Shown: piece after piece, positions 30,099-46,256 of the stretch
Position numbering within the stretch: position 1 is the stretch's first letter
How the letters are laid out: each line of letters opens with the position of its first letter
IMG/VR virus record: IMGVR_UViG_2579779052_000002
DNA length: 46,256 nucleotides
Source: a virus
Taxonomy: Duplodnaviria > Heunggongvirae > Uroviricota > Caudoviricetes
Reading direction: 5' to 3' (one strand)
Notes under the pieces: model-generated
Told to the model about the DNA's origin: nothing
Databases searched by the model: none
What the model saw: the letters and a program-made list of their open reading frames with translations, nothing else
Made by a program: the position numbers and the translations under genes

Positions 30099-30336
30099 GT
30101 CTTACCTCTCCGTCCTGATTGCGTTGCTGATTGTCCGCGCGGAGTTGAGCCAGCACCTGCTGCATATCCTGTACCCCGGCGCTGATGATATTCAGTGTGT
30201 CGACGGTACTTTTCAGGGTGCTGGCCTGCGCTTCGTTTCTGGCGTTCTCCCGGCCCAGCGACCACGACAGACGCATGGATGTTCCCCATGCGGCAATCAG
30301 AAGGAAAGCGACGCCAAGCGTGGGCCAGAGCTTCAT
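29929..30336 (-). CDS. lysB: i-spanin (P2 LysB-like)
   Basis: Start chosen at ATG 30336 (MKLWPTLGVAFLLIAAWG..., N-terminal TM then coiled coil); ATGA-coupled to the endolysin gene. Confidence 0.65.
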   Translation of the reverse strand: MKLWPTLGVAFLLIAAWGTSMRLSWSLGRENARNEAQASTLKSTVDTLNIISAGVQDMQQVLAQLRADNQQRNQDGEVRREQLRNDIAKDECAHALPDARFTDRLRRHAERATASAVSPAYTADADHAGNASPLP

Positions 30337-30725: not shown

Positions 30726-31045
30726 TCGTTCCTCTCCTTCACCCTGCGATCAAATATTGCAATAACCTTGTCGCGTGCTTTCTCTGCGCCCATAAAACCG
30801 ATTGAGGCACCAAAAAACGTCACTGCATCCTCAGGGATCCCGAAGAAGCGCAGCGACCCGGCCACGGCCATGGCAAGAACGCCGCACGCCAGCGATCCCG
30901 TTACGGTCTGAACCAGTGTTCGTCCGTCATAAAGACTCATCAGCGCGGAAATGCTGACAGCCGCGCCTACTGCATACACCGTTGGCAGGTGGTCAAAGAG
31001 CCACGCAATAACCTGCTCTGTGATCCCTGTTTGAATGGTGCTCAC
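30722..31045 (-). CDS. holin (P2 Y-like position)
   Basis: GTG start with GGGGGGAG RBS directly after X stop; 107 aa with hydrophobic segments. Confidence 0.6.
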   Translation of the reverse strand: MSTIQTGITEQVIAWLFDHLPTVYAVGAAVSISALMSLYDGRTLVQTVTGSLACGVLAMAVAGSLRFFGIPEDAVTFFGASIGFMGAEKARDKVIAIFDRRVKERNE

Positions 31046-31047
31046 TG

Positions 31048-31248
31048 CTACTCCCCCCACAACTGAATCATTTCTCGTTTCTTCTTCTCCGGCTCCGGCA
31101 TCTCCACTTCCTGCCCGGCGTCCAGAAATACCTGCTGACAGAGTCCGGGGTTGGCATCCAGCACCTTTTCGGTGACGCCCCGTGTCGTGCCGTAGTACCG
31201 GAAACAGAGCGAATCCACGGTGTCGCCTTCCAGTGCCTTCACTTTCAT
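31048..31248 (-). CDS. X: tail protein X (P2 gpX-like)
   Basis: MKVKALEGDTVDSLCFRYYGTTRGVTEKVLDANPGL... matches P2 gpX (MKTFALQGDTLDAICVRYYGRTEGVVETVLAANPGL...) as recalled. Confidence 0.8.
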   Translation of the reverse strand: MKVKALEGDTVDSLCFRYYGTTRGVTEKVLDANPGLCQQVFLDAGQEVEMPEPEKKKREMIQLWGE

Positions 31249-31742
31249 CAGCACAGCTCCGCAAACATTCGCGGTCGTCCCAGAATGTCAGAGATGGCCC
31301 AGCTCACATCGCGCCACAAATCCGATGTCTGTATATCCAGTGCGTCCGCCCGGCGGTCGCCCTTGTCCGTTGTGTCCGCATCGCGGTAACGCTCCAGAAT
31401 CAGGGCGCGTGTGGCGGTATAAACAGCATTGCGCCAGTGCCAGAGATTGACGCTTTCTCCGTTAATTACAGGGGCCGGAACATCGGCCAGCGTCTGATAG
31501 CCAGCCGCCTGTTGTTCCTGCTGCCATGCTTCCAGCTCGCGGGTAACGTGTGCTATGGCCCCGGTGGCGGTATGCAGCAGGCGGGAGGTGGTCACGCGGC
31601 CCGGCAGTCGTACCGCCAGACGCAGCTCACGCAGCACAATATCCGGCCAGAATGCACCCGCTGAAATGCGAGTGTCGCCATCATCGGTATCGGTGATGTC
31701 GTCCTCTGCGGGGCCGGGGTTAGTTCTGGCAACCATACTCAT
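31248..31742 (-). CDS. L: head completion / stabilisation protein (P2 gpL-like)
   Basis: Start chosen at ATG 31742 with AGGAG RBS; similarity to P2 gpL as recalled (EQFWPDV.../AVSEILG). Confidence 0.8.
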   Translation of the reverse strand: MSMVARTNPGPAEDDITDTDDGDTRISAGAFWPDIVLRELRLAVRLPGRVTTSRLLHTATGAIAHVTRELEAWQQEQQAAGYQTLADVPAPVINGESVNLWHWRNAVYTATRALILERYRDADTTDKGDRRADALDIQTSDLWRDVSWAISDILGRPRMFAELC

Positions 31743-31843
31743 GGGGTTCACTCCTGAAAAAATCGGGCGGTGGGTGCGCGGTGTAAACGGTCACGGAGTC
31801 AAACCGGAACACCGCGCACGCCGCCCGCTGACGGGGTCAGTCG

Positions 31844-32644
31844 TTAACCGCGCTTTGCCTTCTGCGTCGCGGTGGTTTTTCGTGTTGCAGGCTTCCGCGT
31901 TGTCTTTTTATTTTTGCTGCTTTCGTCCTGCGCCTGCTGTGCGCTGGCGTCTTCTGGTTCGGCTGCGGAATCGGCTTTTTTCAGGGCGCGGGAAAGGGTT
32001 GCAATCTCGCGTTTCACACCTGCGTTCGGGTTCAGGTGCATCGCTTCGCGCAGCAGCTTCAGTGAAGAGGCCATGTTGTCTGCATCGGTCAGGCCACGAC
32101 GGGCAAAGGCACACGCCTTGCATAATTTGGCGCGCACTTCGTCCGGAATGTCCTGGTTGGCGACAATTTCCCAAAGTGTGTCCAGTGGTTCGATAAAGGC
32201 GGATAAATCCGCGTCGGCATCCGTCCCAGCCTGCGTCAGTACCGGGTTGCAGATTTCTTCGGTCAGTACCGTGGCAGCAGTACGGCCAAAGTTATCCGGC
32301 ATGATGAGGTTGTGACGGACCACATATGCACCAATACGCAGCGCCAGCGGAAGATCGCCGCAGTCAATCGCCCACACCATCAGCGTGGCAATTACTTCGT
32401 CCTGTTGCCCGCCGTCAGCCTCCAGCGTTCCCTCAATCCAGCCGGAAAAGTCCGGCAACAACTCTTTTTTGATGGCGGCTTTCGCGCTTCTGGCCTGTAT
32501 GGCCTTTAGCCTGGCCTGTGCCAGACGCAGACGATACAGCACTTCTTCATGCGCGGTACACGCGGCGTGGTCCACACCTTCATTCGCCCGGCCTGCGCGC
32601 TGTGCCATCACGTTCTGCCAGTGTTGTTGTGCAGGAGTAATCAT
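31844..32644 (-). CDS. M: terminase endonuclease (small) subunit, P2 gpM-like
   Basis: 266 aa with GGAGAG RBS; position between N and L; basic C-terminal tail. Confidence 0.8.
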   Translation of the reverse strand: MITPAQQHWQNVMAQRAGRANEGVDHAACTAHEEVLYRLRLAQARLKAIQARSAKAAIKKELLPDFSGWIEGTLEADGGQQDEVIATLMVWAIDCGDLPLALRIGAYVVRHNLIMPDNFGRTAATVLTEEICNPVLTQAGTDADADLSAFIEPLDTLWEIVANQDIPDEVRAKLCKACAFARRGLTDADNMASSLKLLREAMHLNPNAGVKREIATLSRALKKADSAAEPEDASAQQAQDESSKNKKTTRKPATRKTTATQKAKRG

Positions 32645-32689
32645 TTTTTCTCTCCGTTACAGGCGGGCATGATGCCCGCCGTGAGTTGA

Positions 32690-33742
32690 TTAGCTGTCGG
32701 CGAACTTCAGGCCAGTGACCATCGCGCACTTGCCATAGTCTTCAACGACATAAGCGTCATTGATGGACTGGTAGGTGGCGATGCGGTTGTATTCCGGCTC
32801 GTCTTTCATCAGACGACGCATTGAACCTTTCTGCCAGTAAATCGACAGGTTGTTGAACGAGGTGATAAGCATCGTTGCATCCGGGAAGAACGGCGCAAGG
32901 AACACGCCCAGCCCGCCAATGGTGCGCGATGACAGGATGAGCTGCCCGGCAAGTAATTCCGCATTGGGATTCTGGCCGCTGATGCTGTTCAGCACGGGCA
33001 GACGCAGCGAGTTAAACAGGTTGCGCCCCATAATCACCACGAGGTCGTCAGCTTCCTTGTGCCATTCATCCAGCAGGGATGAGCGCGCATCCTGTACCAG
33101 AGCATCGGCATTCGCATACTTACCCGCGTGCGCCACAGTGTTGTCCATGTTGCGGGAGGTCAGCGTCACGTCATTCATTACGCGCTCGCTGGCATCGGTT
33201 CTGATGTGCTCCAGCCAGCCCACGTTAACGTCCTGAAGCAGCTTGTTGGTGTGAAAATCAGACTCGTAGGCGTGGGATGTGCCGTTAAAGCCAATCATGA
33301 TGCGATCAAGCGCTACCTGCCGGGCGATCTGTGTACTGATACGGGACTGAAAATCGCTGTGGGCCGCCCAGGTATCAAGCTGTGGGTACGAAATAAAGGT
33401 ATCGTAGTTCACCTGTTCGCACTGGTACTGACGAGACTTCATATCGATCACGTTATTCGGGTTACGGCGTTTGATGCCGTCATAACTGCTATTCGTGCGC
33501 GCAATTGGCCCGGTGGTGTCCAGGAGGATTTTTTCGCCTTTCTGGTCGGTCACGCCGATCACGTTAATTCTTTTCGTAAATTCGGTACTTTCCTTTGAGG
33601 CGTTTTCAAAACGCTGCTGCACCGCGGGTTCCACGGTAAATCGCGATACCAGTGCAGATACCGGGATATTGTTAAGCGACGCCTGCTGCGCCATATAGCA
33701 CCCCAGCTTGTTGCGGGTAATATCTGACATCACCAGATTCAT
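32690..33742 (-). CDS. N: major capsid protein, P2 gpN-like
   Basis: 350 aa; KFTVEP, INVIGVTDQKGEK, DLVVIMGRNLF segments align with P2 gpN as recalled; start could instead be ATG 33730. Confidence 0.85.
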   Translation of the reverse strand: MNLVMSDITRNKLGCYMAQQASLNNIPVSALVSRFTVEPAVQQRFENASKESTEFTKRINVIGVTDQKGEKILLDTTGPIARTNSSYDGIKRRNPNNVIDMKSRQYQCEQVNYDTFISYPQLDTWAAHSDFQSRISTQIARQVALDRIMIGFNGTSHAYESDFHTNKLLQDVNVGWLEHIRTDASERVMNDVTLTSRNMDNTVAHAGKYANADALVQDARSSLLDEWHKEADDLVVIMGRNLFNSLRLPVLNSISGQNPNAELLAGQLILSSRTIGGLGVFLAPFFPDATMLITSFNNLSIYWQKGSMRRLMKDEPEYNRIATYQSINDAYVVEDYGKCAMVTGLKFADS

Positions 33743-33765
33743 AAAAAATTTGCTCCTTTGTCTTA

Positions 33766-34602
33766 TCAGAAGTCAGCCAGCTGGTCGGAGGCTGCGCCCG
33801 TTGCGGTGAAGCGGTTCTGCGGATCGCCGTCCTGCGTGCGCAGTTTTTCCTTCAGTGCTGTCAGCTCTGTGGTCAGTGACGTGATTTTCTGGCGGTCCTG
33901 CTGATGGCGGGTTTCCAGCACATTAAAACGGTCGATAATGTCGGCCTGTGATGTTGCAACGCCTTCCACCGCTTCCTGAATACGGGAGAAACTGGCGTCA
34001 TCCGCTTTGCGGCCACGACCAATAATCCCCATTACGCGGTTAAACCACTGGGTGCCTTCTTCCTGGCGTTGTTCTGCCATTTCGATGATTTCAGACTCGA
34101 TGGCTTCGGAGATAAGCGGTGCTTCACCCTGGATACTGTTGAACGTCATCACCGCCTGACGCTGCTGTGCCGTGAATTTCAGGCGCTCAGTGCCCAGGCT
34201 TGCCGGGGTGTCGGTCATCGCCAGCCCGACCAGATAGGCACGCCCGTTAACGGAGAACTGCGGGTGCAGTTCGATACTGGAATAGATTTTCTTGCCGTCA
34301 GCGACAAGCTGCTTCATGCGCTCGGTCGGTTCGATTTCTGCATACAGCGCAGTACGTCCGGCCAGCGGGCCTTCCGTAATATCTTCCGTACTCAGCGCGG
34401 TGACATCGCCCATTGCGGAAAATTCGCTTGACGGGCATGGCGAGAGATAGTGCTCAACGTTCACGCGGGCAGCGTAAACATCCGGGTTGAAGTTCTCGGC
34501 GGCTTCACGCAGATGCACCGGACTGATTTCACGGCCATCAACAGTTGATCCGGAGACAGCCACGCGAAACTTTTTGCGGGATGTCTTTTTTTCATTAGCC
34601 AT
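33766..34602 (-). CDS. O: capsid scaffolding protein, P2 gpO-like
   Basis: Start chosen at ATG 34602 (MANEKKTSRKKFRVAVSGSTVDGREIS...), aligning with P2 gpO N-terminus as recalled. Confidence 0.85.
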   Translation of the reverse strand: MANEKKTSRKKFRVAVSGSTVDGREISPVHLREAAENFNPDVYAARVNVEHYLSPCPSSEFSAMGDVTALSTEDITEGPLAGRTALYAEIEPTERMKQLVADGKKIYSSIELHPQFSVNGRAYLVGLAMTDTPASLGTERLKFTAQQRQAVMTFNSIQGEAPLISEAIESEIIEMAEQRQEEGTQWFNRVMGIIGRGRKADDASFSRIQEAVEGVATSQADIIDRFNVLETRHQQDRQKITSLTTELTALKEKLRTQDGDPQNRFTATGAASDQLADF

Positions 34603-34756
34603 AGTTTTTGCCCCTCTGACTGGTTCTTCAGTCATGATGGCAAAGCGTAACAGGCTGATACAAAGGGATTTTGTTGTAAGAAAACGGCCAGAACAGGGGG
34701 TTAAGGAGAACAGTTTCGCGCGCGGGTAATCTTCCTGTAATTACTCAGGGGGAGCA

Positions 34757-36508
34757 ATGATTCAGGACGCTTTTGTGCGCCAGCGTGCGCGGCAACTTTA
34801 CTGGCAGGGTTATCCGCCCGCAGAAATATCACGTCTGATGGGAATAAACCCGAACACGATTTATGCGTGGAAAAAACGCGACCAGTGGGATGAAACGCCA
34901 CCCGTGCAGCGTGTCACGCAGTCCATCGATGCGCGCCTCATCCAGCTTACTGAAAAACAGAATAAAACAGGCGGTGACTTTAAGGAAATAGACCTGCTGA
35001 CCCGGCAGCTTAAAAAACTGCATGATGGCCAGCCGGATGCGACGGTCACAGGAAAGAAAGGCCGGGCGAAAAAACTCAAAAATCATTTCACGCCGGAACA
35101 GATTGCCGCACTGCGGGAAAAAATCATCAGCAGGCTGGAGTGGCATCAGCGGGGCTGGTTTGACTCCCTGACCCTTTGCAGGGAAGCCGGGATACGTAAC
35201 AGGATGATCCTGAAATCCCGACAGATTGGGGCGACCTGGTATTTTGCACAGGAAGCTCTGCTGATGGCGCTGCGTGACGATGTGGCGCAACCTTACCAGC
35301 GTAACCAGATTTTTTTGTCTGCGTCGCGTCGTCAGGCGTTCCAGTTTAAAAGCATTATTCAGAAGGCCGCGGCTGAAGTTGATGTGGAGCTGAAAGGGGG
35401 CGATAAAATCATCCTCTCCAACGGCGCAGAGCTGCATTTTCTCGGCACTTCTGCTGCGTCGGCACAGTCCTATACGGGCAATTTTTATTTTGATGAATTT
35501 TTCTGGGTCAGTCGCTTTGCTGAACTGCGCAAGGTGGCTGGCGCTATGGCAACCCTCAGCGGACTGCGGCGCACCTACTTCTCCACGCCATCCACCGAAA
35601 CGCACGAGGCATACGCCTACTGGAACGGCGACCGCTGGAACGAGAAAAAGGCCACGCATAAACGCCAGCGTTTTTCTGTGGACTGGAAAACTCTGCATAA
35701 CGGGCTTATCTGCCCTGACCGGACGTGGCGGCAAATTGTCACGCTGGAAGATGTGGTCAATCACGGCTGGAAACACACCGATATCGACGAAATTCGTGAT
35801 GAAAACACCGAAGACGAGTTCCTCAATCTCTATATGTGTGAGTTTGTCCGCGAAGGGGAATCGGCATTTAACCTGAATATCCTGATTGGCTGCGGTGTTG
35901 ACGGATACGACGACTGGAAAGACTGGAAACCTTTTGCTCCCCGCCCGATGGGGAATCGTCCGGTATGGATTGGGTATGACGCAAACGGCAGTAGTGGCAA
36001 CGGCGACAGCGGCGCTGTGTCCGTGGTGGTTCCTCCGGCTGTTCTTGGTGGCCGTTTTCGAACGGTGGAGACGCGACGCGTTCAGGGGCTGGAGTTTGAA
36101 GAACAGGCCAGAGTCATTGAAGAGTTCACGTATCGCTACAACGTGGAACACATCGGCATTGATGTGACGGGCGGGAACGGGGAGGCTGTTTATCAGATAG
36201 TGAAACGGTTTTTCCCTGCTGCTATTCCGTACACCTTCACGCTGTCATCAAAACGGTCGCTGGTACTGAAAATGCTGCAAATAATGCGTGCCGGGCGGTG
36301 GGAATACGATCGCGCCGAACGCGAGCTGGTCGCGGCCTTTAACGCCGTGCGTAAGGTGAAAACACCGGGCGGCTTTATCACTTACGAAACGGACCGCGCG
36401 AGGGGGATCAGCCACGGCGACCTTGCGTGGGCAACCATGCTTGCTGTCATTAACGAACCGATTGGCGGCGAAGGAGAAAACGAGCGTTTCACGGTTATGG
36501 AGTTCTGA
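34757..36508 (+). CDS. P: terminase ATPase (large) subunit, P2 gpP-like
   Basis: 583 aa with GGGGGAG RBS; divergent from O as in P2; ATPase-like region around KSRQIGATWYFA. Confidence 0.9.
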   Translation: MIQDAFVRQRARQLYWQGYPPAEISRLMGINPNTIYAWKKRDQWDETPPVQRVTQSIDARLIQLTEKQNKTGGDFKEIDLLTRQLKKLHDGQPDATVTGKKGRAKKLKNHFTPEQIAALREKIISRLEWHQRGWFDSLTLCREAGIRNRMILKSRQIGATWYFAQEALLMALRDDVAQPYQRNQIFLSASRRQAFQFKSIIQKAAAEVDVELKGGDKIILSNGAELHFLGTSAASAQSYTGNFYFDEFFWVSRFAELRKVAGAMATLSGLRRTYFSTPSTETHEAYAYWNGDRWNEKKATHKRQRFSVDWKTLHNGLICPDRTWRQIVTLEDVVNHGWKHTDIDEIRDENTEDEFLNLYMCEFVREGESAFNLNILIGCGVDGYDDWKDWKPFAPRPMGNRPVWIGYDANGSSGNGDSGAVSVVVPPAVLGGRFRTVETRRVQGLEFEEQARVIEEFTYRYNVEHIGIDVTGGNGEAVYQIVKRFFPAAIPYTFTLSSKRSLVLKMLQIMRAGRWEYDRAERELVAAFNAVRKVKTPGGFITYETDRARGISHGDLAWATMLAVINEPIGGEGENERFTVMEF

Positions 36509-37554
36509 TGAGCAGAAAAAATAAAAAAGTGCGCATGAGTTCACGCATTGATCTCGCTGATGCGCTCAGGAAAGAATCATCGCTCAGTGCATTCACATTT
36601 GATGGTCCTTATCGCCTGACCGGGCATGACCTGCTGGACAATATGTACTGTGCTGATAACGGACGGTGGTATGAAACCCCGGTGGACTGGTACGGTCTGG
36701 CAAGAGCAGCCCGGCAAACGTCCTGGCATCAGTCTGCGCTTTACTTTAAGCGCAATGTATTACTCGGTTGCTACATCCCGCACCCGCTGCTTTCCCGGCA
36801 GGATTTCTCGGCGCTGGCGCTGGACTGGTTTGTGTTCGGTAACGCATTCCTTGAGCTTAGAAGCAATATGCTCGGCGAACCGCTTAAATTACGGCACGCC
36901 CTGGCGAAATACATGCGACGCGGAAGCGATCTTGAATCATGGTGGTATGTGCAGGATGGCAAGGACGCGTTCCAGTTTCGCCCTGGCAAAGTGTGCCACC
37001 TGATGAATCCGGATATTAACCAGGAAATCTACGGCATGCCGGAATATCTTGGCGCATTACTCTCGGCCAGCCTTTCTCATTCGGCGGACATGTTCAGAAA
37101 ACTGTACTACGACAACGGATCCCACGCCGGGTGCATCATCTACATCGGTGCAGCGCAGGTAAACCGCGAAAGCATGGACTCCCTGAAAGAAACGTTACAG
37201 GGCGCGCGTGGTGGTGGTGCGTTTAAAAACGTACTCATCCATGCGCCCAACGGGGGCAAAGAAGGTGTGCAAATTTTGCCGTTCCAGCAGATCACTGCAA
37301 AGGATGAGTTCATGAATGTTAAGGCGGCATCCCGTGATGATGTGCTGGCTGCGCACCGCGTTCCGCCGCAACTGATGGGGGCGATGCCGGGCGAAAAAAG
37401 TGCGTTTGGTGATGTGGAGAAGGCCGCGCGGGTTTACGCAATTAACGAGCTGATGCCCGTCATGGAGGCCATGAAGCACATCAATGACTGGCTTGGCGAA
37501 GAGGTGATCCGCTTTAACCCTTACGCACTGCTAGATACCCAGCCCACATCCTGA
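36508..37554 (+). CDS. Q: portal protein, P2 gpQ-like
   Basis: 348 aa, start overlaps P stop (TGATG); P-Q order as in P2. Confidence 0.9.
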   Translation: MSRKNKKVRMSSRIDLADALRKESSLSAFTFDGPYRLTGHDLLDNMYCADNGRWYETPVDWYGLARAARQTSWHQSALYFKRNVLLGCYIPHPLLSRQDFSALALDWFVFGNAFLELRSNMLGEPLKLRHALAKYMRRGSDLESWWYVQDGKDAFQFRPGKVCHLMNPDINQEIYGMPEYLGALLSASLSHSADMFRKLYYDNGSHAGCIIYIGAAQVNRESMDSLKETLQGARGGGAFKNVLIHAPNGGKEGVQILPFQQITAKDEFMNVKAASRDDVLAAHRVPPQLMGAMPGEKSAFGDVEKAARVYAINELMPVMEAMKHINDWLGEEVIRFNPYALLDTQPTS

Positions 37555-38005
37555 CGCGCTTCGCTTGTCTGCTGCTTCGCCGGGGCATAAAAAATTTATG
37601 CCCCGACTCTCCAGCTCCTGTATCAATCAGATAATTTCACGACGCTTTTCTGCTTATTGTCATCATCGGCGGTCAGACTCTTACGCAATCCCACCGCGTT
37701 GACTGCATGTTCTCGCCGCCTCAGTGCGATTTTGACGGCCTTATCTGCCACCCATCAAATCAAAAGCCCTCACGTCTTTTTCACGCTCAGCGTGAGAAAT
37801 ACAGCCATTCTGTTGTGTCGCTGCGACATCGTTCAGGGGATGCTATTTACCCCCTGAAACGCGGGCTGTTCCCCCGTCACCTGCGCGCAGAAAAAACGCG
37901 TTTTTTTGTGCACGTACGGATCCTTGACGGATCCAGCCACCACGCGGGCCGGAAGTACAAAAAGTCGTTCAAAAAAATTGTGCAAACTTGTGCACTATCG
38001 TGCAA

Positions 38006-38031
38006 ACAAAAAAAGCGCCTTATCGGCGCTT
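38006..38031 (-). terminator. intrinsic terminator after the 38040-38309 gene
   Basis: Minus strand AAGCGCC-GATAA-GGCGCTT followed by TTTTTTTGTTTG. Confidence 0.6.
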
Positions 38032-38039
38032 CAAAAGTA

Positions 38040-38309
38040 TCAATTGTTGCTGTTTATTAATCGCCAACCACGAACATATGCTTCATAGGCATCTCTGTGC
38101 CTTACAGTTCCAGCCTGGCTAAACGGAATGTTAGCTAAAACTAAATCATTCTGAGCCATAGCGCGTCCTTCAAGCGCATCTTTTATGCCTAGCTCAAAAG
38201 CACAGGCAGCGCATTTGTGCCGACCTTCTTGTCCTTGATATTCAGGGAGAGACAGAAATGTTGGATTATAACGATGAGGGTTCTTGCAAATACCTGTTTT
38301 AGCCCGCAC
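38040..38309 (-). CDS. hypothetical protein (89 aa), possible Cys-containing small regulator
   Basis: GTG start with GAGG RBS; followed by a strong terminator; no family recognised. Confidence 0.45.
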   Translation of the reverse strand: MRAKTGICKNPHRYNPTFLSLPEYQGQEGRHKCAACAFELGIKDALEGRAMAQNDLVLANIPFSQAGTVRHRDAYEAYVRGWRLINSNN

Positions 38310-38673
38310 TTTATTTACCTCATAGGAAAAATATGCGTGCCTTTACAGAGGTGCGTGTAAGCAATAAAATATACGACGCACATTTTGATTTACTTCGGAA
38401 GGCACGCATATCAGGTTAAGTGAGTCCGACCGAGTTTTACGCCCCAATAGTTGCTGCTATTGGGGCGTTTTGCATGGACAATGCCGCGCAATTATCTTGT
38501 CGCTCACAATGCGAACGATCTTACAAAAAGGCACATTACTGTCAAGATAATTGATCGTTTTAATCGATAGATAATAGACAATCTATTTGTTTAACAGATC
38601 GATTATTGAAGTAAGTGTGCCAAATGGAATGATACTGTCTCTATAAACGTGAGCATTTTTCGCGCAGATGCTT

Positions 38674-38985
38674 TTACTCAGGAAATAACGCCCGGATATT
38701 CCCAGCCATCTGGCTGGTTATCTTAGCCACTGGTGCAGACTGTGCTTCAAACTTTTTTGAGCTGATTTGTGTCACAGGTAACATCTCATCATCAGCCCAT
38801 GCGGCCAGTCGGTAAGCCTCTGCCGGATTCGTCTTCAGAAGTGCCAGCCCGGCCAGAAAAGCCACGCGTTGGCCGCTTTTGCGGGCTTCTGGTGTAAGGC
38901 TGTCCAGCCAGGCGCATGCTTCTCCTTCGTTCTTGACGGCGGCGGGCTTCAGATAGAAACTTATCCGTCTGGTTGGTGTCGTCAT
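38674..38985 (-). CDS. parR: ParR/StbB-like centromere-binding protein
   Basis: Start chosen at ATG 38985 (MTTPTRRISFYLKPAA...KSGQRVAFLAGLALL), resembling plasmid R1 ParR N-terminal RHH region as recalled; directly downstream of parM. Confidence 0.6.
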   Translation of the reverse strand: MTTPTRRISFYLKPAAVKNEGEACAWLDSLTPEARKSGQRVAFLAGLALLKTNPAEAYRLAAWADDEMLPVTQISSKKFEAQSAPVAKITSQMAGNIRALFPE

Positions 38986-38989
38986 TGGT

Positions 38990-39949
38990 TTACTCCTTGT
39001 CCATTGCGTACAGCCCATTAACCAGAGCAAACTGTGGCACCCCGTCCGCGATGAAAGTCGCATTAACTCCGCAGGCTTCGCGGATAGCGGGTGCCACAAT
39101 CTCCGCCCCGCCACCGACAACCATCACCCGCCCGTAACCCGAAAAAACCGCCAGCGCGCGGATCACGCGTTGTTTCAGTGTTTCTTCCTTTTCACGAATA
39201 ACCGCCATCAGGCTGGCGTAATGCGCGTCATTGTGGATGTGCTGGCGCAGCCAGGCTTCATTATGGCGATGTTCGATAATGGTATTGGCGATGTGGTGAC
39301 TGGTGCGCATACCGTTAGTGGCCATCACCGACAGTACGGCATCGGCCATAAGAGAAACGCCTACGTGTGGATCGCAAAACACCTGGCTGATACCTGCCAG
39401 TTGCCCCTGAACCTTTGCCACATCCAGCGTGGTTCCGCCCAAATCCACAATCAGCAGGGATTCAAACGGACTCATGTCAGCCAGTGCTTTAAAGCCAGCC
39501 GGAATGGATTCAGGCATAACCCGTACGTTACGGATAGTGAATGCTTCGCCGTTCTGGTACTCCACCGGGCGCATGACGTTCGCTTTTTTGCGGTTGATGT
39601 TGGCCATGTCCGGCTGTGCGTTTGTGTCGAAATATTCGCTCAGTGGCAGGGTAACAACCACATCCACTTCCTGTGGCGTGATGTCTGATTTGACCAGCGC
39701 GTGATGAATGGCAATGACATTCACATCGCTGTACTGGTATTGCGTGTCGGTCGTCTGGACAAAGCGATCGCTGACCGGATCAAAACCATAGCGCACGCCA
39801 TCAAGCATGTAGTTAGCAGGCTGCGAGCCACCGAACGGCGCAGACCATTCCGACTTGAAGCTGTTCGGGCTGATGGCGTTGCGGCGTTCGCCGTTCTCAG
39901 TCCATGCCAGCTTGATGTTGGTGGAGCCGTCGTCGATGTAAATTTTCAT
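38990..39949 (-). CDS. parM: ParM/StbA-like actin-fold partition ATPase
   Basis: 319 aa; motifs IDDGSTNIK, MPESIPAG, LIVDLGGTTLDV, VMVVGGGAE match actin-like ParM (R1 StbA) as recalled; AAGGAAAA RBS. Confidence 0.8.
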   Translation of the reverse strand: MKIYIDDGSTNIKLAWTENGERRNAISPNSFKSEWSAPFGGSQPANYMLDGVRYGFDPVSDRFVQTTDTQYQYSDVNVIAIHHALVKSDITPQEVDVVVTLPLSEYFDTNAQPDMANINRKKANVMRPVEYQNGEAFTIRNVRVMPESIPAGFKALADMSPFESLLIVDLGGTTLDVAKVQGQLAGISQVFCDPHVGVSLMADAVLSVMATNGMRTSHHIANTIIEHRHNEAWLRQHIHNDAHYASLMAVIREKEETLKQRVIRALAVFSGYGRVMVVGGGAEIVAPAIREACGVNATFIADGVPQFALVNGLYAMDKE

Positions 39950-39977
39950 GTCGGTTTTCCTTATGTTGATTAATTAA

Positions 39978-40096
39978 TCGTTTACGGGATTCTGAAATCC
40001 CGTTTTTGCCTGTTTTGTGCGCGCTTCATATATCGCTGCGCGTTTTTTGCTCATTTACGGGATTCGTGAGTCCCGTTTCTGTCTGTTTTTTGTTTC
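39978..40096. repeat. two ~45-bp direct repeats (73 bp apart), each with an ACGGGA-loop-TCCCGT hairpin followed by a T-rich tract
   Basis: TTTACGGGATTCTGAAATCCCGTTTTTGCCTGTTTTGT and TTTACGGGATTCGTGAGTCCCGTTTCTGTCTGTTTTTTGT; one copy in the A-parM spacer, one in the last codons of A. Confidence 0.8.
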
Positions 40097-42866
40097 CACT
40101 GGTCAGGCCACCCCGCAGCAGGTCTGCTTTGCGGCTGGCGCGTTCAGTGGTTTCACTGATTCTCTGTGCGTGCTCTGCGTCGCGGATGGCGCGCAGCATG
40201 TCAGAAAGCACGGTAACGGGTGTTTTCATGGTGTTCTGGTCCTGCTGAAGTGTGGATGCCAGGCGTGCGGCGGCTTCAGGGTCTGATGCCCCCAGCTGTG
40301 CCAGATAGCTGGCGACCGGGTTATGGCGGATCTCCGTGCTGCTTACGCCATGATTACGGCTCAGACGCTGCCAGAGCTGCGTGATTCGGCTGTCCGGGCG
40401 GGTATCCGGTTTGCGTACAATTTCAAATCCCTGCGGTGCAATGATGCTGCCGTCAACGTACAGACTGCCGCCCCGTAACAGGTGCTGCATCTGTTGTTCA
40501 CCGATATGCAGGCCGAGAGATTCAGCAGACTCCCGCCATTCTTTAGCGAGTAACTCGTGGTTATCAGGCAAAGGCCGCTGCTGTTTGCGGCTCTGTGTCC
40601 AGTTCTGCATTTCATCGCTGCTGTTTTTTGCCTGTTTGTCACGAAGCGAACGCATCAGCGCCCGGCGTTCGTGCCGTTTCAGTGAGCGCATCCATTCATT
40701 TACTTCAACGCCGTCAGGAAGCTGCGGCCACGGTGCTGGCCGTTCTTCCGGCTGTTCTGTCCCGTTGTTGCCTGTTTCCTGTACACGGGGACAGTTATTG
40801 CCACGAGTCCAAGGGGCGGCAGGGCCGCCCTGAAGGTCAAAACCATTTTCGCGGGCGCTGTCTTCCGCTTCCGGTTTACGTCTTACCAGCTTCCAGTTAT
40901 CCGGATGCGTGCACACACGGGAGGATTCCCCGATGAATGGCGACCAGATCCCGTAAATCTGTACACTCTGTTCGCCGTAATCGTTCAGCTCATCTGCGAG
41001 GTCGTAGGCTGTGCGAATCAGGTAGTCCTTGCGCGGAACAAGTACGCCACCCTGTTTTTCAATGTAGGTGGCAAAACATCCGGCATCAGCGGCAGCGAGT
41101 ACCGCATCCATTGCATCATCCTTCAGCCGTTGTGGGCCTTCCGGGTTGCGTGCCATCTGGCTGGCAAGGCGGCGGAGTTCACGCCATACCTGACGGGAGG
41201 GGATGCCAAAGAACTGGAACTGGCGGACCCGGTGAAGGCGTGCCCAGCCGATGGCGCGTTCCACGCTCTCGGCCATTGATTTTCCGGTTTCGTGGTCAAC
41301 GCGTGGCTTGCCCGTTTTCGGGTCGATGCCATCCACGGCGCGGCTGTCCAGGTTCTTTCCGATGTAGGTGGCGATGTAGCTGGTTGGCGTGCCTTTTGAG
41401 CCGTCGACATACTCCACCTTAAAGCGCGGAGTAATATCATTGCCCAGCTCGTGGCGGTCTTCCTGAATGGCAATATCGCGGGTGTGGGACACAATGGTGT
41501 CGATTTCTTCCGGATGAGCAAAGACCATCATATGCCAGTGCACGGTGCCGTCATGGTGAGGCTCCACCGTGCGGATGCCATACCAGCGCAGGCCGTCGCG
41601 GTTCAGTTTCTTGCGGACCGCCGCAAAAAACGTGTTAACCAGGTAATCGCTGGAGTCGCGCATGGTGGCCCCGTTCCATTTGGGATTCGGATGACCGTTC
41701 TCTGTTGTGGCGTGGTATTTTGACGGGCAGGTGACAGTCAGAAACACCGCTCTGTCGCCACGGGCTTCGGCCAGAAGTTCCAGCCCCTTCATGGTGGCCA
41801 TCATTTCTGCCTTACGGTGAATCGGGTTACTTACTCCCGCGTAATACACTGTCTCGAGATCAATCGTGAACCCGTCTTCGTTTTCCAGCATGAAACTTTT
41901 CAGGAAATCGCGTGTTTTCTCGCGCTGTGCGCGAAACTCGCTTAACGCGTCCTGGCTCAGATAGGGTGATGTTTTTCTGGAAACCAGACAGGCGGCGCGG
42001 AGTTGTTCTTCTCTCCACTCGCAACGTAACAGCCACAGTTTGCGTTTCCACCATTCCGCACAGGTCAGGCGAAGGATTGCGCCCGGCAGCAGCTCCGTGT
42101 CCGGTTCATTCCTCCGGTCTTTGTCTGTTGTCAGAGCGTCATAATGTGGAGGCATAGCGTGCAGGTGTAACGCCATGCGGGCCAGCATCTGATACGCCTT
42201 CAGCGTTACATCCATGGTCAGCTCGCCATCGGTCGCGCCAAAGCCATCGCAGAGTTTTTCAAAAGTGCCACTGAACATCGCCGCCGTCATGGTGGCCAGC
42301 GTCTGTATCTGGTGTTTGTTGAGCTGCGGCAGGTAAAGCAAATCGTCCAGGCGTTCGCGTCCGGCAAGGGAGCGATAGCCCGGTGTCAGCCAGCGGCTGT
42401 CGGTGCGGTCCAGACGTTCGAATATTTTGCGCAGGGTTCCGCGCGCGTAGCGTTCAGCCTGCCAGCTCTTTTTGCCTTTCTGACGATCGGCTTCCTGCTT
42501 CTTGCGCAGAAAAGAGAGGTGGCGGCTCAGAGGTTCACGCAGATAAACGGGAAGCACCTTCAGTGTGGCAAAAGCACGGGCCACCGGGTCTTGTTCTGTT
42601 GCCTGACGCTTGCTGATGATGCTTTGTGCCAGCTTTTCACGCTGTCCGGCTTCCTCAAGGGATGCCATGAGTTTTTTACCCACGGTGGATTGTGCGAAAA
42701 AGGCTTCTTCCTTCGCTTCCTGTTCTTCCTGTGCCCTTTTGTTTGCCTCAAGGTAGTAACGGATGGCGCGTTGCAGGTCGGTTTCAGTTTCCTGCCTGCG
42801 CTCCGTAAATCTGGCCGGATCAATGGCTGGCCGTGGTTCATTCCAGCTCCATGCAAACGCACTCAT
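40026..42866 (-). CDS. A: replication initiation endonuclease (P2 gpA-like, HUH rolling-circle family)
   Basis: HUH motif HWHMMVF and tyrosine motif SYIATYIGK; start set at ATG 42866, ATGA-coupled to the upstream gene (ORF track starts 27 nt earlier). Confidence 0.8.
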   Translation of the reverse strand: MSAFAWSWNEPRPAIDPARFTERRQETETDLQRAIRYYLEANKRAQEEQEAKEEAFFAQSTVGKKLMASLEEAGQREKLAQSIISKRQATEQDPVARAFATLKVLPVYLREPLSRHLSFLRKKQEADRQKGKKSWQAERYARGTLRKIFERLDRTDSRWLTPGYRSLAGRERLDDLLYLPQLNKHQIQTLATMTAAMFSGTFEKLCDGFGATDGELTMDVTLKAYQMLARMALHLHAMPPHYDALTTDKDRRNEPDTELLPGAILRLTCAEWWKRKLWLLRCEWREEQLRAACLVSRKTSPYLSQDALSEFRAQREKTRDFLKSFMLENEDGFTIDLETVYYAGVSNPIHRKAEMMATMKGLELLAEARGDRAVFLTVTCPSKYHATTENGHPNPKWNGATMRDSSDYLVNTFFAAVRKKLNRDGLRWYGIRTVEPHHDGTVHWHMMVFAHPEEIDTIVSHTRDIAIQEDRHELGNDITPRFKVEYVDGSKGTPTSYIATYIGKNLDSRAVDGIDPKTGKPRVDHETGKSMAESVERAIGWARLHRVRQFQFFGIPSRQVWRELRRLASQMARNPEGPQRLKDDAMDAVLAAADAGCFATYIEKQGGVLVPRKDYLIRTAYDLADELNDYGEQSVQIYGIWSPFIGESSRVCTHPDNWKLVRRKPEAEDSARENGFDLQGGPAAPWTRGNNCPRVQETGNNGTEQPEERPAPWPQLPDGVEVNEWMRSLKRHERRALMRSLRDKQAKNSSDEMQNWTQSRKQQRPLPDNHELLAKEWRESAESLGLHIGEQQMQHLLRGGSLYVDGSIIAPQGFEIVRKPDTRPDSRITQLWQRLSRNHGVSSTEIRHNPVASYLAQLGASDPEAAARLASTLQQDQNTMKTPVTVLSDMLRAIRDAEHAQRISETTERASRKADLLRGGLTSGNKKQTETGLTNPVNEQKTRSDI

Positions 42867-43252
42867 GGCTGGTATCCCGTCACGCGCTGCCACTCCTGTG
42901 AGAAGAGGGCGGAAAGGCGGTTAAATTCAGCGGAGTATTCACTCAGCGAGGCACACCCGCCAGCAGTGCGATGCGCCAGCATTGCCGCAAATATGGAGGC
43001 CGGGGAGTCGTAATACGCCAGCAGTGATTCGCCGTGTGGTGTCAGGCAGTGCAACGCCAGCCCGTGTGGTGTGAAGTCCACGCGGTAGCAGTCGTCTACT
43101 GTGAAATAAAGGGTGTCTGCATTCTCCGGTTTTGTGGTGCGTGCTCTGTTGTCACGACCACGGATGTAGAGATCAAATAATCCCTGAAGAACGGGAGCCA
43201 GACGGGTGTCCTGTGTGCGCACCCATCTTGTGAAGTCATGAGCGTCAATCAT
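42863..43252 (-). CDS. hypothetical protein (129 aa), early operon
   Basis: ATG ORF translationally coupled to A. Confidence 0.55.
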   Translation of the reverse strand: MIDAHDFTRWVRTQDTRLAPVLQGLFDLYIRGRDNRARTTKPENADTLYFTVDDCYRVDFTPHGLALHCLTPHGESLLAYYDSPASIFAAMLAHRTAGGCASLSEYSAEFNRLSALFSQEWQRVTGYQP

Positions 43253-43360
43253 GCTGCAATTCTCTTTACTACAGATGTGCGAAGGCTTCCTGCCAAAAAA
43301 CTCAGAAGCGGTCGGTTACAGGAATTGACGTTCTACGAGTAGTTATTGCTGGCTTGAGGT

Positions 43361-43579
43361 TCATTTCTGTTTAATTCCGTGCATGCTGTAGAAGAAATCA
43401 AAAGTGTTATCTATGCGTATCATGAGCTCACGCTGCATCGCTTCTGGTGTTTCTGGTTCGCCTGGTGAGCCAACTCCCGCGAAGAAATCACCGATCTCGC
43501 TTTGAATAAGTGCCTTTAGCGTTGCTGAGGAACTCAGGTGTGTTCGGTGATGTCTGCGAGTGATTCTTCTCCTACTCAT
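43361..43579 (-). CDS. hypothetical protein (72 aa)
   Basis: ATG ORF, ATGA-coupled to the upstream gene. Confidence 0.45.
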   Translation of the reverse strand: MSRRRITRRHHRTHLSSSATLKALIQSEIGDFFAGVGSPGEPETPEAMQRELMIRIDNTFDFFYSMHGIKQK

Positions 43580-43779
43580 TTGCGTGGATCCTGTACCTGT
43601 CGGATAAGATTCACCCGCGCCACATTAGTGGCGCAAAAGTAAGTGCCGTCAGTGAGATAGATGTGGTGTGCATCCTTTTCTGAGCGGTGTTTGTCGATTG
43701 TGGTAATCAGACGTTCGTCGACTTCGTATTCACGTCCTCTGGAGGTGAAACGAACGACAGGAAAATGCTTAATTGCCAT
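43576..43779 (-). CDS. hypothetical protein (67 aa)
   Basis: Start chosen at ATG 43779 with AAGGAGG RBS (ORF track starts at an upstream GTG). Confidence 0.55.
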   Translation of the reverse strand: MAIKHFPVVRFTSRGREYEVDERLITTIDKHRSEKDAHHIYLTDGTYFCATNVARVNLIRQVQDPRK

Positions 43780-43865
43780 TACGCCTCCTTGGTGTGTGTG
43801 AATACCTCTGCGAATGCAGATTGTGTTCACATTTTTTTATTTAAGCTGGGGTTTTATTTATGCGG

Positions 43866-43979
43866 TTATTCGCCAGTGAAAAAGCGTTCAATCTTTTTTA
43901 CTGAATTAATAATTCGCATAATACCAATTGCACAAACCACCGAAATAATAAGAACAATCCAGGATATAAATATACTCAT
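43866..43979 (-). CDS. small hydrophobic peptide (37 aa, single predicted TM)
   Basis: Below ORF-track cutoff; MSIFISWIVLIISVVCAIGIMRIINSVKKIERFFTGE, ATGA-coupled to the upstream gene. Confidence 0.35.
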   Translation of the reverse strand: MSIFISWIVLIISVVCAIGIMRIINSVKKIERFFTGE

Positions 43980-44218
43980 GCGATATTTCCCAGTTTGTAC
44001 GGCTCAATATGCTCCCCGCATTCTGCGGCGCAGATAAGCTCAGAAAGTTCATTAAGCGCATCCAGATCGTCAGCGTAAAAAGCTACGTCATACAGACTCC
44101 GGATAGCCCTGGTCAATGAGTCACGGGCTGCACGTTCTGAATGAGCGCCGGATGCGCTTAAACGAAAATAAAAACGCTCAAGTGCTTTGTTGATGAGAGT
44201 TTTATATTCTTTATCCAT
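43976..44218 (-). CDS. hypothetical protein (80 aa)
   Basis: ATG with AAGGGTG RBS. Confidence 0.5.
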   Translation of the reverse strand: MDKEYKTLINKALERFYFRLSASGAHSERAARDSLTRAIRSLYDVAFYADDLDALNELSELICAAECGEHIEPYKLGNIA

Positions 44219-44229
44219 CGCAACACCCT

Positions 44230-44508
44230 TTAATCTGCTTTCTGAATTTCAGCTTCTGAATCCATGCAGATAATCTCGATATAGGGTTCATCGCCATTAA
44301 CCTGACGAGATTTTTCGGCTTCGCTAATTATTTCGCGAATGATCTGGTACGGAAGCTCTACAGTCAGGCGTGTACCGTTCAGATAAACGTAGGTAGCTGC
44401 GTTTTTTTCAGATGGAACTACTCCGTCAATAGCTGATGCGCGTAATAACAGTTCACCGCGAAAATCAATAAAGCGGATAAATACACCTTGTGCATGGTCT
44501 TTAGTCAT
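44230..44508 (-). CDS. hypothetical protein (92 aa)
   Basis: ATG with AGGTG RBS. Confidence 0.5.
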   Translation of the reverse strand: MTKDHAQGVFIRFIDFRGELLLRASAIDGVVPSEKNAATYVYLNGTRLTVELPYQIIREIISEAEKSRQVNGDEPYIEIICMDSEAEIQKAD

Positions 44509-44518
44509 AAAGCACCTG

Positions 44519-44869
44519 TTATAAAGCAGCCTGTTTAATAAAACTTTGCCCGCGAAGCAGACGATCGACTGTGCGTAGTGCTTCGTACAATGTGAAATCC
44601 TGCCCGAACTGATTATCGCCGCTGCTTAATGCAAAAATGCGGTTTCCGGTAAACGGATTGTGTGGGCATCTGTGAACCACGATTCCAGCTTTCTCAATCA
44701 GCCAGGTGTGTTCGCCGATTTGTTTTACAGCGTGCCCATCTGGTGTTGCGTGCGTCTCGTTCAGGTTATAGCGGCTGTTACTACGTGATGCACTGGTAGC
44801 GACGTGGTGTACATGGCGTTCTACGCCATTACGAAATTTGGAGTATGGATTATTAGTGTTTTTTTTCAT
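44519..44869 (-). CDS. hypothetical protein (116 aa)
   Basis: ATG ORF in early operon; weak RBS. Confidence 0.45.
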   Translation of the reverse strand: MKKNTNNPYSKFRNGVERHVHHVATSASRSNSRYNLNETHATPDGHAVKQIGEHTWLIEKAGIVVHRCPHNPFTGNRIFALSSGDNQFGQDFTLYEALRTVDRLLRGQSFIKQAAL

Positions 44870-44890
44870 GATGATGCTCTGTTCATTGTT

Positions 44891-45094
44891 TTAGCTGTTA
44901 GCCAAAGCGTCTTTTAACATCGCCACAAGGTTTACTTCAGGCTTTTCCATTTTGGCGCGTTTGGGGCGGATAATAATTCGACCGTCAGCCAACATCTTTT
45001 TGCATGTATTAAGAGGGATACCTGTTATCTCTGCATATTTCTGCAGGGATACATAGGGGGCATTCACATTGATATTGATGGTTATACCTGACAT
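44891..45094 (-). CDS. cox: Cox-like HTH excisionase/regulator
   Basis: 67 aa; APYVSLQKYAEITGIPLNTCKKMLADGRI resembles P2 Cox HTH (IPYQEFAKLIGKSTGAVRRMIDKGKL) as recalled. Confidence 0.55.
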   Translation of the reverse strand: MSGITININVNAPYVSLQKYAEITGIPLNTCKKMLADGRIIIRPKRAKMEKPEVNLVAMLKDALANS

Positions 45095-45110
45095 CCCACT
45101 AGCCTCCTGA

Positions 45111-45317
45111 TCAGGAAGATTTGTTTTGTTCTTTCTGGGTTAGCTCTAGGCCGCGAAGGAAGATCATGCGCGCCATGTTAGAGGATGAGCGTTGTTCTTT
45201 AGCTGCCATTTCATCAATGACGGCTCGCTCCTCGAGGGACAGCCGAAGTGCCAGTCTTGGACCTGTGGCGGTGTTACGCGGAATGCGTGATCTGGTATCG
45301 TGAAGAACTTGTTTCAT
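45111..45317 (-). CDS. small ribbon-helix-helix-like regulator, first gene of the early operon
   Basis: 68 aa, RLSLEERAVIDEMAAKEQRSSSNMARMIFLRGLE; no obvious RBS (possibly leaderless); divergent from repressor. Confidence 0.45.
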   Translation of the reverse strand: MKQVLHDTRSRIPRNTATGPRLALRLSLEERAVIDEMAAKEQRSSSNMARMIFLRGLELTQKEQNKSS

Positions 45318-45359
45318 AGTGGTATATTGTGATCATCTAATAGCTCGTGAAATCATTTT

Positions 45360-45377
45360 GGTATCAAAAAAGATACC
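45360..45377. promoter_or_regulatory. candidate operator GGTATC-AAAAAA-GATACC in divergent repressor/early promoter region
   Basis: Perfect 6-bp-arm inverted repeat 15 bp upstream of the repressor ATG; a related half-site GGTATA lies at 45321. Confidence 0.4.
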
Positions 45378-45392
45378 TGTCAAGGTTTTTGT

Positions 45393-45797
45393 ATGAAAAA
45401 TGATATTGGTCAGCGGTTGCGTGAGGAAAGGGAAAGATTGGGACTTAGTCAAGTTGCCATGAGCGACATTGGTGGAGTCAAAAAGCTAACTCAGCTTAGA
45501 TATGAGAAAGGAGATAGCTTTCCTGATGCTGCGTATTTGGCAGCGCTGTCTCGTTTTGGCCTTGATGTTCAGTATGTTGTGTTGGGAATTCACTCACCTG
45601 AAACTTATAACGATGATGAGCAGGAGTTGATTACTCGCTTTCGAGCAGCTTCGTTAGATGTGAAAAACGCGGTGATCGGGGCTTTAAAAGGTGCGATCAG
45701 TGAAAAGGAAACTCAGCCATCAGGACGTGAGTTAAATATTTCTGGTGGTAATAACCGTATCGCTGGTCGTGACTATAACGAAACTAAGGGTAGGTGA
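45393..45797 (+). CDS. XRE-family HTH repressor (immunity repressor candidate)
   Basis: 134 aa; N-terminal HTH (IGQRLREERERLGLSQVAMSDIGGVKKLTQLRYEKGDSFP); divergent from the cox-like operon. Confidence 0.7.
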   Translation: MKNDIGQRLREERERLGLSQVAMSDIGGVKKLTQLRYEKGDSFPDAAYLAALSRFGLDVQYVVLGIHSPETYNDDEQELITRFRAASLDVKNAVIGALKGAISEKETQPSGRELNISGGNNRIAGRDYNETKGR

Positions 45798-45812
45798 TAG
45801 TAGGGAGGTGAC

Positions 45813-45893
45813 ATGGCCGTCAACTCAAACGGTTCAAACAATCGCGTTGCTGGGCGTGATTTTCACGAAAAGAATATTCAGATAGAGCGATAT
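45813..45893 (+). pseudogene. ORF truncated by IS1 insertion
   Basis: ATG 45813 with GGGAGGTG RBS; reads MAVNSNGSNNRVAGRDFHEKNIQIERY then runs into the IS1 left end at 45894. Confidence 0.55.
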
Positions 45894-46256
45894 GGTGATG
45901 CTGCCAACTTACTGATTTAGTGTATGATGGTGTTTTTGAGGTGCTCCAGTGGCTTCTGTTTCTATCAGCTGTCCCTCCTGTTCAGCTACTGACGGGGTGG
46001 TGCGTAACGGCAAAAGCACTGCCGGACATCAGCGCTATCTCTGCTCTCACTGCCGTAAAACATGGCAACTGCAGTTCACTTACACCGCTTCTCAACCCGG
46101 TACGCACCAGAAAATCATTGATATGGCCATGAATGGCGTTGGATGCCGGGCAACCGCCCGCATTATGGGCGTTGGCCTCAACACGATTTTCCGCCATTTA
46201 AAAAACTCAGGCCGCAGTCGGTAACCTCGCGCATACAGCCGGGCAGTGACGTCATC
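45894..46256 (+). mobile_element. IS1 insertion sequence, left end and insA (continues beyond window)
   Basis: GGTGATGCTGCCAACTTACTGATTTAGTGTATGATGGTG matches IS1 left inverted repeat as recalled, followed by insA. Confidence 0.9.
45949..46224 (+). CDS. insA: IS1 transposase InsA
   Basis: 91 aa, [91 protein letters not shown]. Confidence 0.95.

Follow-up and report, generated by a model that had tools for sequence, protein, structure and literature searches.

An R1-type ParMRC cassette fixed beside gene A of P88-like prophages and its probable role in handling transient circular phage genomes

Why should phages that almost always sit in a bacterial chromosome carry the partition system of a plasmid? 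The question is raised by IMG/VR virus record IMGVR_UViG_2579779052_000002 (Caudoviricetes), a stretch of 46,256 nucleotides (nt) that was analysed at its full length and is called the window here, in which an actin-like ATPase gene, parM, and a small adaptor gene, parR, follow the replication gene A of a P2-like prophage. A 1.4-kb parMR query was present in 1304 of 5426 complete E. coli genomes (24%), including O157:H7 and ST131, which places the cassette among the commonest ParMRC systems in E. coli, yet it resides in near-always integrated prophages, for which classical plasmid partition has no obvious use. Our favored answer, to which we assign a probability of about 0.6, is that the cassette is a complete R1-type type II (ParMRC) partition system that handles the transient, circular, extrachromosomal form of the phage genome. 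The cassette as such is already known from RefSeq phage and bacterial annotation, from PHROG families and from Rousset et al., 2022 (PMC9122126), who reported a putative plasmid partitioning system in about one fourth of P2-like phages and raised plasmid maintenance in passing; our searches of the literature for functional work on ParMR in P88 or Xuanwuvirus came up empty. What we add is that parMR is a lineage-fixed module and not hotspot cargo, that a specific two-repeat parC candidate has cross-genus support, that ParR is under domain-specific constraint, and that counts of chromosomal and plasmid locations argue against a plasmid lifestyle. The features on which the argument turns are as follows.

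38990–39949, minus strand: parM, actin-like partition ATPase of 319 amino acids (AA), with matches to Pfam, PHROG 691 and R1 ParM
38674–38985, minus strand: parR, predicted small DNA-binding adaptor of 103 AA (PF10784, PHROG 2515)
39978–40019, no strand assigned: proximal parC-like repeat, with the palindrome ACGGGATT-N4-AATCCCGT at 39984–40003, lying 29–70 nt upstream of the parM ATG
40051–40092, no strand assigned: distal parC-like repeat, with its palindrome at 40057–40076, within the last ~20 codons of gene A
40026–42893, minus strand: gene A, rolling-circle replication endonuclease (Pfam PF05840 Phage_GPA, 432.7 bits)

Read along the minus strand, the 3' end of gene A is followed by a 76-nt gap, parM, a 4-nt gap and parR. 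The first-pass annotation, made from the letters of the sequence, had proposed a ParM/StbA-like ATPase from the motifs IDDGSTNIK, DLGGTTLD and VVGGGAE; all three are found in the parM translation, and the proposal was borne out by Pfam profiles (PF06406 StbA_N, 269.8 bits against a cutoff of 24.6; PF21523 ParM C-terminal domain, 229.3 bits against a cutoff of 27.4) and by a full-length match to R1 ParM (1MWK; residues 1–316 aligned nearly gap-free, roughly half of them identical, E = 7.7e-92). R1 ParM entries were the only PDB sequence matches (1MWK, 5AEY, 4A62 and 4A61; E ~1e-91). The nucleotide-binding and catalytic motifs of the actin fold, DDGSTNIK, MPES, DLGGTTLD and GGGA, are the same as those of R1 ParM in the alignment, and they are invariant in eight diverse ParMs. 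Other actin-fold Pfam families stayed below their own cutoffs in the profile search with this protein, which rules out the possibility, raised along with the initial proposal, that another such family would match in place of ParM. Given the R1 ParM match and these sub-cutoff scores, the family call stands, and we class the ATPase by its sequence as a true R1-type ParM, not an Hsp70, FtsA or sugar kinase. PHROG 691 (parM) and PHROG 2515 (parR) are both ‘partition protein’ families. From NCBIfam we recovered sub-threshold matches only (PRTRC_D and PRK13917 at just 18–22 bits, with cutoffs >200); despite these scores, the Prokaryotic Genome Annotation Pipeline names both genes, and RefSeq gives identical parMR coordinates in a genome that is 100% identical across this stretch.

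The companion protein had been called ParR-like, and here too the searches agreed: ParR matched Pfam PF10784 Plasmid_stab_B (83.4 bits, cutoff 25) and, by BLASTP, the ParR of R100 (34% identity over residues 6–61, E = 2e-8), while a PDB sequence search with it returned no match. On these matches we assign the small protein to ParR/StbB of the R1 family. Its start is the ATG at 38985, served by an AAGGAG Shine-Dalgarno sequence at 38993–38998 inside the last codons of parM; a longer open reading frame (ORF) that starts at a TTG and reaches 39120 was rejected because it overlaps parM and because the ATG at 38985 has the AAGGAG.

Is the cassette still under selection? Both parM and parR were intact wherever alleles were compared (63 of 63 unique alleles), with a mean ratio of nonsynonymous to synonymous substitution rates (dN/dS) of 0.067 for parM. 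For ParR, the ratio differed sharply by part (0.13 for residues 1–64, 0.70 for the linker at 65–90, and 0.025 for the last 13 residues), and among its alleles the N-terminus (MTTPTRRISFYLKP) is invariant and the tail, NI(R/Q)xLFPE, is conserved, with a hypervariable linker in between. The tail motif N-x-x-x-L(F/I), with its invariant Asn (N96), is common to the relatives in other genera and to R1 ParR (KNAMKLIN). Such constraint would be expected of a working adaptor that binds both DNA and ParM. It also bears on the suggestion that the cassette is a non-functional relic of an old plasmid–phage recombination: no function has been demonstrated and the centromere candidate is smaller than that of R1, as this suggestion would have it, but intact alleles, the low parM dN/dS, the domain-specific constraint on ParR and a synteny kept at 53–62% ParM identity across genera all speak against it, and we strongly disfavor it as the least credible of the explanations weighed here. 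Within the E. coli loci parR is also a mosaic (38674–38930 here, and loci L021–L100): the N-terminal domain comes in two types (...KNEGEACAWLDSLTPEARKSG... and ...KSEREACSYLDSLPASERSRA...) and the linker in many unrelated forms, while residues 1–17 and the tail are alike in all. When O157:H7 and ST131 prophages are compared by megablast, the match is lost within parR, at 38931 or 38840, and recombination breakpoints therefore fall inside the gene.

A partition system of this type also needs a centromere, and the repeats upstream of parM offer one. The first-pass annotation had two hairpin-containing repeats immediately upstream; the repeats are real (two direct repeats of 42 nt, 81% identical, 73 nt from start to start, each with a 20-nt palindrome), although the distal one falls inside the end of gene A, whose stop codon is at 40026–40028, and is not intergenic. 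The chance of such a repeat pair in this region is ~5e-8. Their GGG-N10-CCC core has 12 occurrences in the 46-kb window, and the sole pair at a spacing of 70–75 nt is this one. In a comparison of 76 loci the GGGAT/ATCCC arms change little, and the 4-nt center and the flanks are variable. A Plesiomonas prophage has a 26-nt repeat pair with the same core at 72-nt spacing, and a Hafnia prophage has two GGG-N10-CCC elements, likewise 72 nt apart, at an equal distance from the parM ATG; in both regions the sequence outside the cores has diverged. Core pairs 72–73 bp apart are thus kept in three lineages whose ParMs are only 62% identical. The 3' end of gene A in P2, which is without parMR, has no such repeats. 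We therefore regard the upstream repeats as a good candidate for parC.

Three other roles were tried for these repeats, of which the first and the last were rejected and the second is not favored. As intrinsic terminators, the hairpins are terminator-like on the antisense (plus) strand only, which has no transcript to end here, with no sense-strand T-run. As structured RNA, they fold at modest energies of –9 to –11 kcal/mol (z ~–2.2 to –2.6) with no Rfam family, and the variation lies in the spacer and flanks and not in compensatory pairs. As a part of the gpA origin, they sit ~0.75 kb from the P2-ori-like nick sequence inside A, and the end of the P2 A gene is without them.

How far does the likeness to R1/R100 ParMRC go? 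The full-length ParM alignment, the kept nucleotide-binding motifs, a ParR of the same Pfam family that is 34% identical in its N-terminal domain, and the gene order (repeats, parM, parR) are shared. The ribosome-binding-site region (CATAAGGA), the C-terminal N-x-x-x-L motif of ParR and its beta-strand residues, the last compared with R100, are similar. The phage ParR is shorter (103 AA vs. 116 AA in R1/R100) and is without the middle helix, and the centromeres are built differently. R100 parC has two sets of five A/C-rich 11-bp direct iterons, each ending in (A)CCC, around a strong promoter; a CCC core preceded by A/T is common to both systems, but the phage sites are fewer and arranged differently. 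Where R1 has ten 11-bp iterons flanking the par promoter, the phage has two 42-nt palindrome units with inverted GGGAT/ATCCC half-sites, 73 bp apart, the distal one overlapping the end of gene A, and no consensus sigma-70 promoter. The host element differs as well: the cassette described here belongs to a P2-family phage that integrates.

The interval between gene A and the portal gene or cos side is the one that in P2 holds orf91, tin and old (the gpA–gpQ hotspot; PMC9122126), and the first reading of this locus took parMR for accessory cargo like old and tin. That comparison did not survive a count of the genomes. A gene A of this type (coverage of at least 80%) occurs in 1320 E. coli genomes and parMR in 1278 (~97%); moreover, P2-like prophages of Hafnia, Plesiomonas, Serratia and Enterobacter keep the order gpA, 0–2 small ORFs, parM and parR at ParM identities of 53–62%. 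After parR these genera have HicAB, a KAP NTPase, ogr-like genes and unknowns, and then the portal and terminase genes. Breadth across genera was taken from the contigs that encode these 53–62% relatives; a single-protein scan of genome contigs gave 9 loci, and a scan of viral contigs gave 80 loci that all belong to a tight E. coli clade and so inform within-clade variation, not breadth. In a neighbor-joining tree (no bootstrap), the ParMs from phage contexts group in a single clade, separate from the plasmid ParMs, that of R100 among them, and a member of the neighboring clade has a plasmid-like context.

Where does the variable part of the interval begin? Over 63 unique sequences from 76 loci, alignment identity is 0.93–1.0 across A, parM and the first half of parR, decays within the parR linker and reaches ~0.45 (the random level) past the parR stop; homology with the P88-type phages ends exactly at that stop codon. 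Because identity reaches the random level only past parR, the variable hotspot is 38000–38673 and does not include parMR, which refines the limits of the P2 gpA–gpQ ‘hotspot’ in these phages to a slot that begins after parR. The P2 old/tin genes are variable exclusion cargo with their own promoter, whereas parMR is fixed in its lineage on the same strand as A. From these alignments we judge parMR to be a lineage-fixed module of the P88-like branch, inherited vertically.

The same observations bear on a role in the lysogen, be it anti-phage or anti-plasmid defence (which the first-pass annotation had also entertained), incompatibility with ParMRC plasmids, or an effect of the integrated parC on chromosome segregation. 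The location between gpA and the portal gene, a known defence hotspot of P2-like phages (PMC9122126), and the presence of the cassette in nearly a quarter of complete E. coli genomes would suit such moonlighting. However, PADLOC gave no match for parMR, which leaves the defence idea unsupported, and of the two marks of defence cargo, a known family and variable presence at the gpA–gpQ hotspot, parMR has neither, being invariable there, unlike hotspot cargo. A ParM only about half identical to that of R1, with repeats unlike the R1 iterons, makes cross-talk with such plasmids unlikely, and no consensus promoter for expression in the lysogen was found. We consider a lysogen role of any of these kinds very improbable.

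Could the phage instead be living as a plasmid? The region is 95–98% identical to Escherichia phage P88, phage 520873, Xuanwuvirus P884B11, Citrobacter phage PhiSM and others, all of the genus Xuanwuvirus in the family Peduoviridae (P2-like), and in the RefSeq records of these phages the two genes appear as ‘plasmid segregation protein ParM’ and ‘partition protein’. A search of 50,697 phage records placed homologues of R1-type ParM only in Xuanwuvirus (14 records) and in the P1-like plasmid prophage D6. Stable maintenance as a low-copy plasmid instead of integration, which is also the reading of Rousset et al., would explain a complete ParMRC cassette and has some further points to its credit: D6, a true plasmid prophage, has an R1-type (StbA-type) ParM that is 47% identical and, as D6 is plasmid-maintained, serves ordinary plasmid partition there; a 34.5-kb circle has been deposited as a plasmid and several phage-sized assembly records stand separately; and many members carry a Hok/Gef toxin. 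Against this, 1450 of the 1452 occurrences in complete E. coli genomes are chromosomal and 2 are on plasmids, the carriers retain a tyrosine integrase, and of seven matching PLSDB records one is a phage-sized circular replicon (34.5 kb), itself with int. Gene A offers no plasmid replicon either, since P2 gpA is by established P2 biology a cis-acting rolling-circle initiator under early lytic control. Since the chromosomal places so outnumber the plasmid ones, the integrase is kept even in the circular replicon and PLSDB holds a single circle, stable plasmid carriage is at most rare. It is unlikely, and we rate plasmid maintenance as the purpose of the cassette as quite improbable. Of the first-pass idea that the module stabilizes an episomal form, only a transient episome fits; a stable one does not.

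The circular replicon is pZ1323PEC0009-2 (L020, NZ_CP148288.1), with its integrase intact, and the separate phage-sized records CP025923.1, CP025874.1 and CP025901.1 come from Indian clinical isolates; these separate-replicon records could be excised or induced circles or genuine episomes. The toxin gene, of the Hok/Gef (MokW-like) type, adjoins ogr in most Xuanwuvirus genomes and lies outside the window.

L003 13707–13847; L020 1291–1431; P88 34928–35065: Hok/Gef toxin gene in three genomes

With this gene also present, the Xuanwuvirus lineage has counterparts of parMRC and of hok/sok, the two stability loci of R1. Homologues of Hok are, however, equally common in integrated Shiga toxin (Stx) phages, so that the gene is weak evidence for plasmid-like behavior. 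One further carrier, a 226-kb contig labeled ‘Vagococcus sp. WN89Y’ (NZ_JBQPOM010000071.1, L005), has an E. coli-type prophage region with a 97% identical ParM and is probably contamination or a mislabelled assembly.

If the substrate is neither a plasmid nor the integrated prophage, when would the cassette act? Gene A gives an indication. A P2-ori-like nick sequence lies at ~40795–40824 within it (22/30 match to the P2 ori nick context), at a position that agrees with the prediction from the gpA protein alignment. The A–parM interval has no sense-strand terminator-like site and no consensus sigma-70 promoter, and parMR follows A on the same strand in all lineages; on these two grounds co-transcription with the early operon is the simplest reading, and gene A is the probable source of read-through transcription into parMR. 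The gpA protein is itself unusual in length, with 955 AA here vs. 761 AA in P2; homology to P2 A stops near residue 759, and the extra C-terminus (~195 AA, 40026–40610) corresponds to a separate 167-AA ORF in the Hafnia prophage (L013, 4453–4956).

Early co-expression leaves two purposes to be weighed, each with a precedent. The first precedent is srpMRC of the SXT/R391 integrative and conjugative elements (ICEs), a ParM-type system in a normally integrated element with a rolling-circle initiator, which stabilizes the element while it is excised and replicating as a rolling circle, and which is switched on only together with the excision regulon; its proven centromere, srpC, has just four short direct and inverted repeats (PMC4489591). 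SrpM and SrpR are distant from R1 ParM and ParR, whereas the phage proteins are close to them, and srpMRC, which was tested experimentally, belongs to an ICE and not to a phage. The second is AlpAC of the C. glutamicum prophage CGP3, an actin-like protein and an adaptor that binds repeats upstream of the operon, which is induced early and required for normal phage DNA copy number (mutants have a 2-fold lower copy number; PMC4446434). AlpAC differs in its actin-like family, its reversed gene order, its 24 short repeats, its actinobacterial host and its cryptic phage.

On the AlpAC precedent, ParMRC would serve only to position DNA in the lytic cycle, moving or spacing the replicating monomeric circles that are the P2 packaging substrate and so raising the yield of replication or packaging, with no role in inheritance. 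Several observations suit this: parMR lies directly downstream of A with no terminator between them, suggesting early lytic co-expression; CGP3 AlpAC mutants show the 2-fold drop in phage DNA copies; and fixation as a core gene fits a function in every lytic round. But the phage proteins are near those of plasmids, for which the activity that has been measured is bipolar segregation; AlpC is of another Alp family, in which the order of the genes is reversed; and P2, 186 and the majority of P2-like phages grow with no system of this kind. Lytic positioning as the sole role is unlikely in our estimate, though it ranks second among the readings. We favor an srpMRC-like purpose over it on account of how closely the proteins resemble a genuine segregation machine; this is a ranking of ours, and the sequence data do not separate the two.

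We therefore return to partition of the transient circle and set out how it might work. We propose the transient circular genome as the substrate, given that carriers are nearly always found integrated and that replication of the element depends on gpA and takes place early. ParR dimers would bind the GGGAT/ATCCC half-sites of both repeats and, more weakly, an ACAG(G/A)C subsite that precedes each repeat by 10 nt; the ParR–DNA complex would cap and stabilize ATP-ParM filaments through the C-terminal tail of ParR, and insertional filament growth between two copies would drive circular phage genomes apart. ParM and ParR would be made with the early operon, only while the genome is extrachromosomal and under gpA rolling-circle replication (after infection or excision), and ParR on the proximal repeat probably dampens or modulates expression. 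The favored purpose would be even distribution and retention of the transient circle in dividing cells, as during the establishment of lysogeny or in spontaneous or slow excision. The wider proposition, that ParMRC belongs to the core early functions of a lineage of integrating myoviruses in which a two-palindrome centromere near the rolling-circle origin moves transient circles and not a plasmid, we advance tentatively, at somewhat less than even odds. If true, the best-developed bacterial genetic system would include phages that handle their genomes in an actin-based step. Knowing the expression and role of the cassette would show whether temperate phages handle transient circular genomes by actin-like filaments, and would extend the srpMRC (ICE) and AlpAC (actinobacterial cryptic prophage) findings to tractable E. 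coli phages (P88, PhiSM).

Several points weigh against this proposal. P2-type lytic growth is short, and a segregation benefit is not obvious in it. The candidate centromere has just two repeat units (4–6 half-sites) vs. ten iterons in R1, the Serratia and Enterobacter relatives differ in having 14–20-nt inverted arms around a 26–28-nt spacer, and binding of ParR to the repeats is something we infer. The AlphaFold2 model of the ParR monomer is of low confidence (mean predicted local distance difference test score 58; helices at 20–29 and 32–52, residues 1–12 disordered) and formed no N-terminal strand, a strand that forms only in the dimer. A weak promoter of parMR's own, and hence expression in the lysogen, is possible. 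Finally, the cassette of this record may sit in a defective or rearranged element, or the sequence may be chimeric, as the structure of the window described below indicates.

The remaining features lie downstream of parR.

38000–38673: variable cargo slot between parR and the portal/cos side
38040–38309, minus strand: 89-AA cargo ORF with a CxxC motif (PHROG 3941, function unknown)
38545–38518, minus strand: promoter-like site TTGACA-16-TAAGAT, which faces the 89-AA cargo ORF and overlaps the AT-rich patch

An AT- and GATC-rich patch had been singled out at 38540–38610, and its composition is as described: it is 75% A+T (46% for the whole window) and holds two GATC and two ATCGAT, with at least two GATC found in just 1.4% of 71-nt windows. 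It is not conserved with the module and belongs to the variable slot, and as a second centromere it was rejected on that ground and for the promoter-like site facing the cargo ORF. The slot may also encode a ~95-nt small RNA on the plus strand, with a promoter-like site at 38342–38370 followed by a 13-bp GC-rich hairpin and T-run at 38439–38472; its fold is –35.6 kcal/mol (z –3.7), and no Rfam family matched. A search of the window for the P2 cos sequence gave no match, and cos was not located.

The window as a whole is composite. It is colinear with the P2-like prophage of strain SCU-105 over 27928–45894 only, and the P2-like tail and baseplate genes are missing. From position 1 to ~27900, the left 60%, it is another prophage, lambdoid/HK97-like and on the minus strand, with genes for a tail fibre, gpJ, I, L, tape measure, Ig-tube, portal, protease-capsid, TerL and lysis. 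The joint (27910–29790) lies within a DUF6645/SASA esterase gene common to the two phage types, with the P2-like part running from 27928, and was found in 0 of 5426 complete E. coli genomes; it is either a prophage–prophage recombination or inversion or an assembly chimera, and it is without effect on the identity of parMR. At the other end, on the side of the immunity region, the last 360 nt (45895–46256) differ from SCU-105, which fits a mosaic immunity module.

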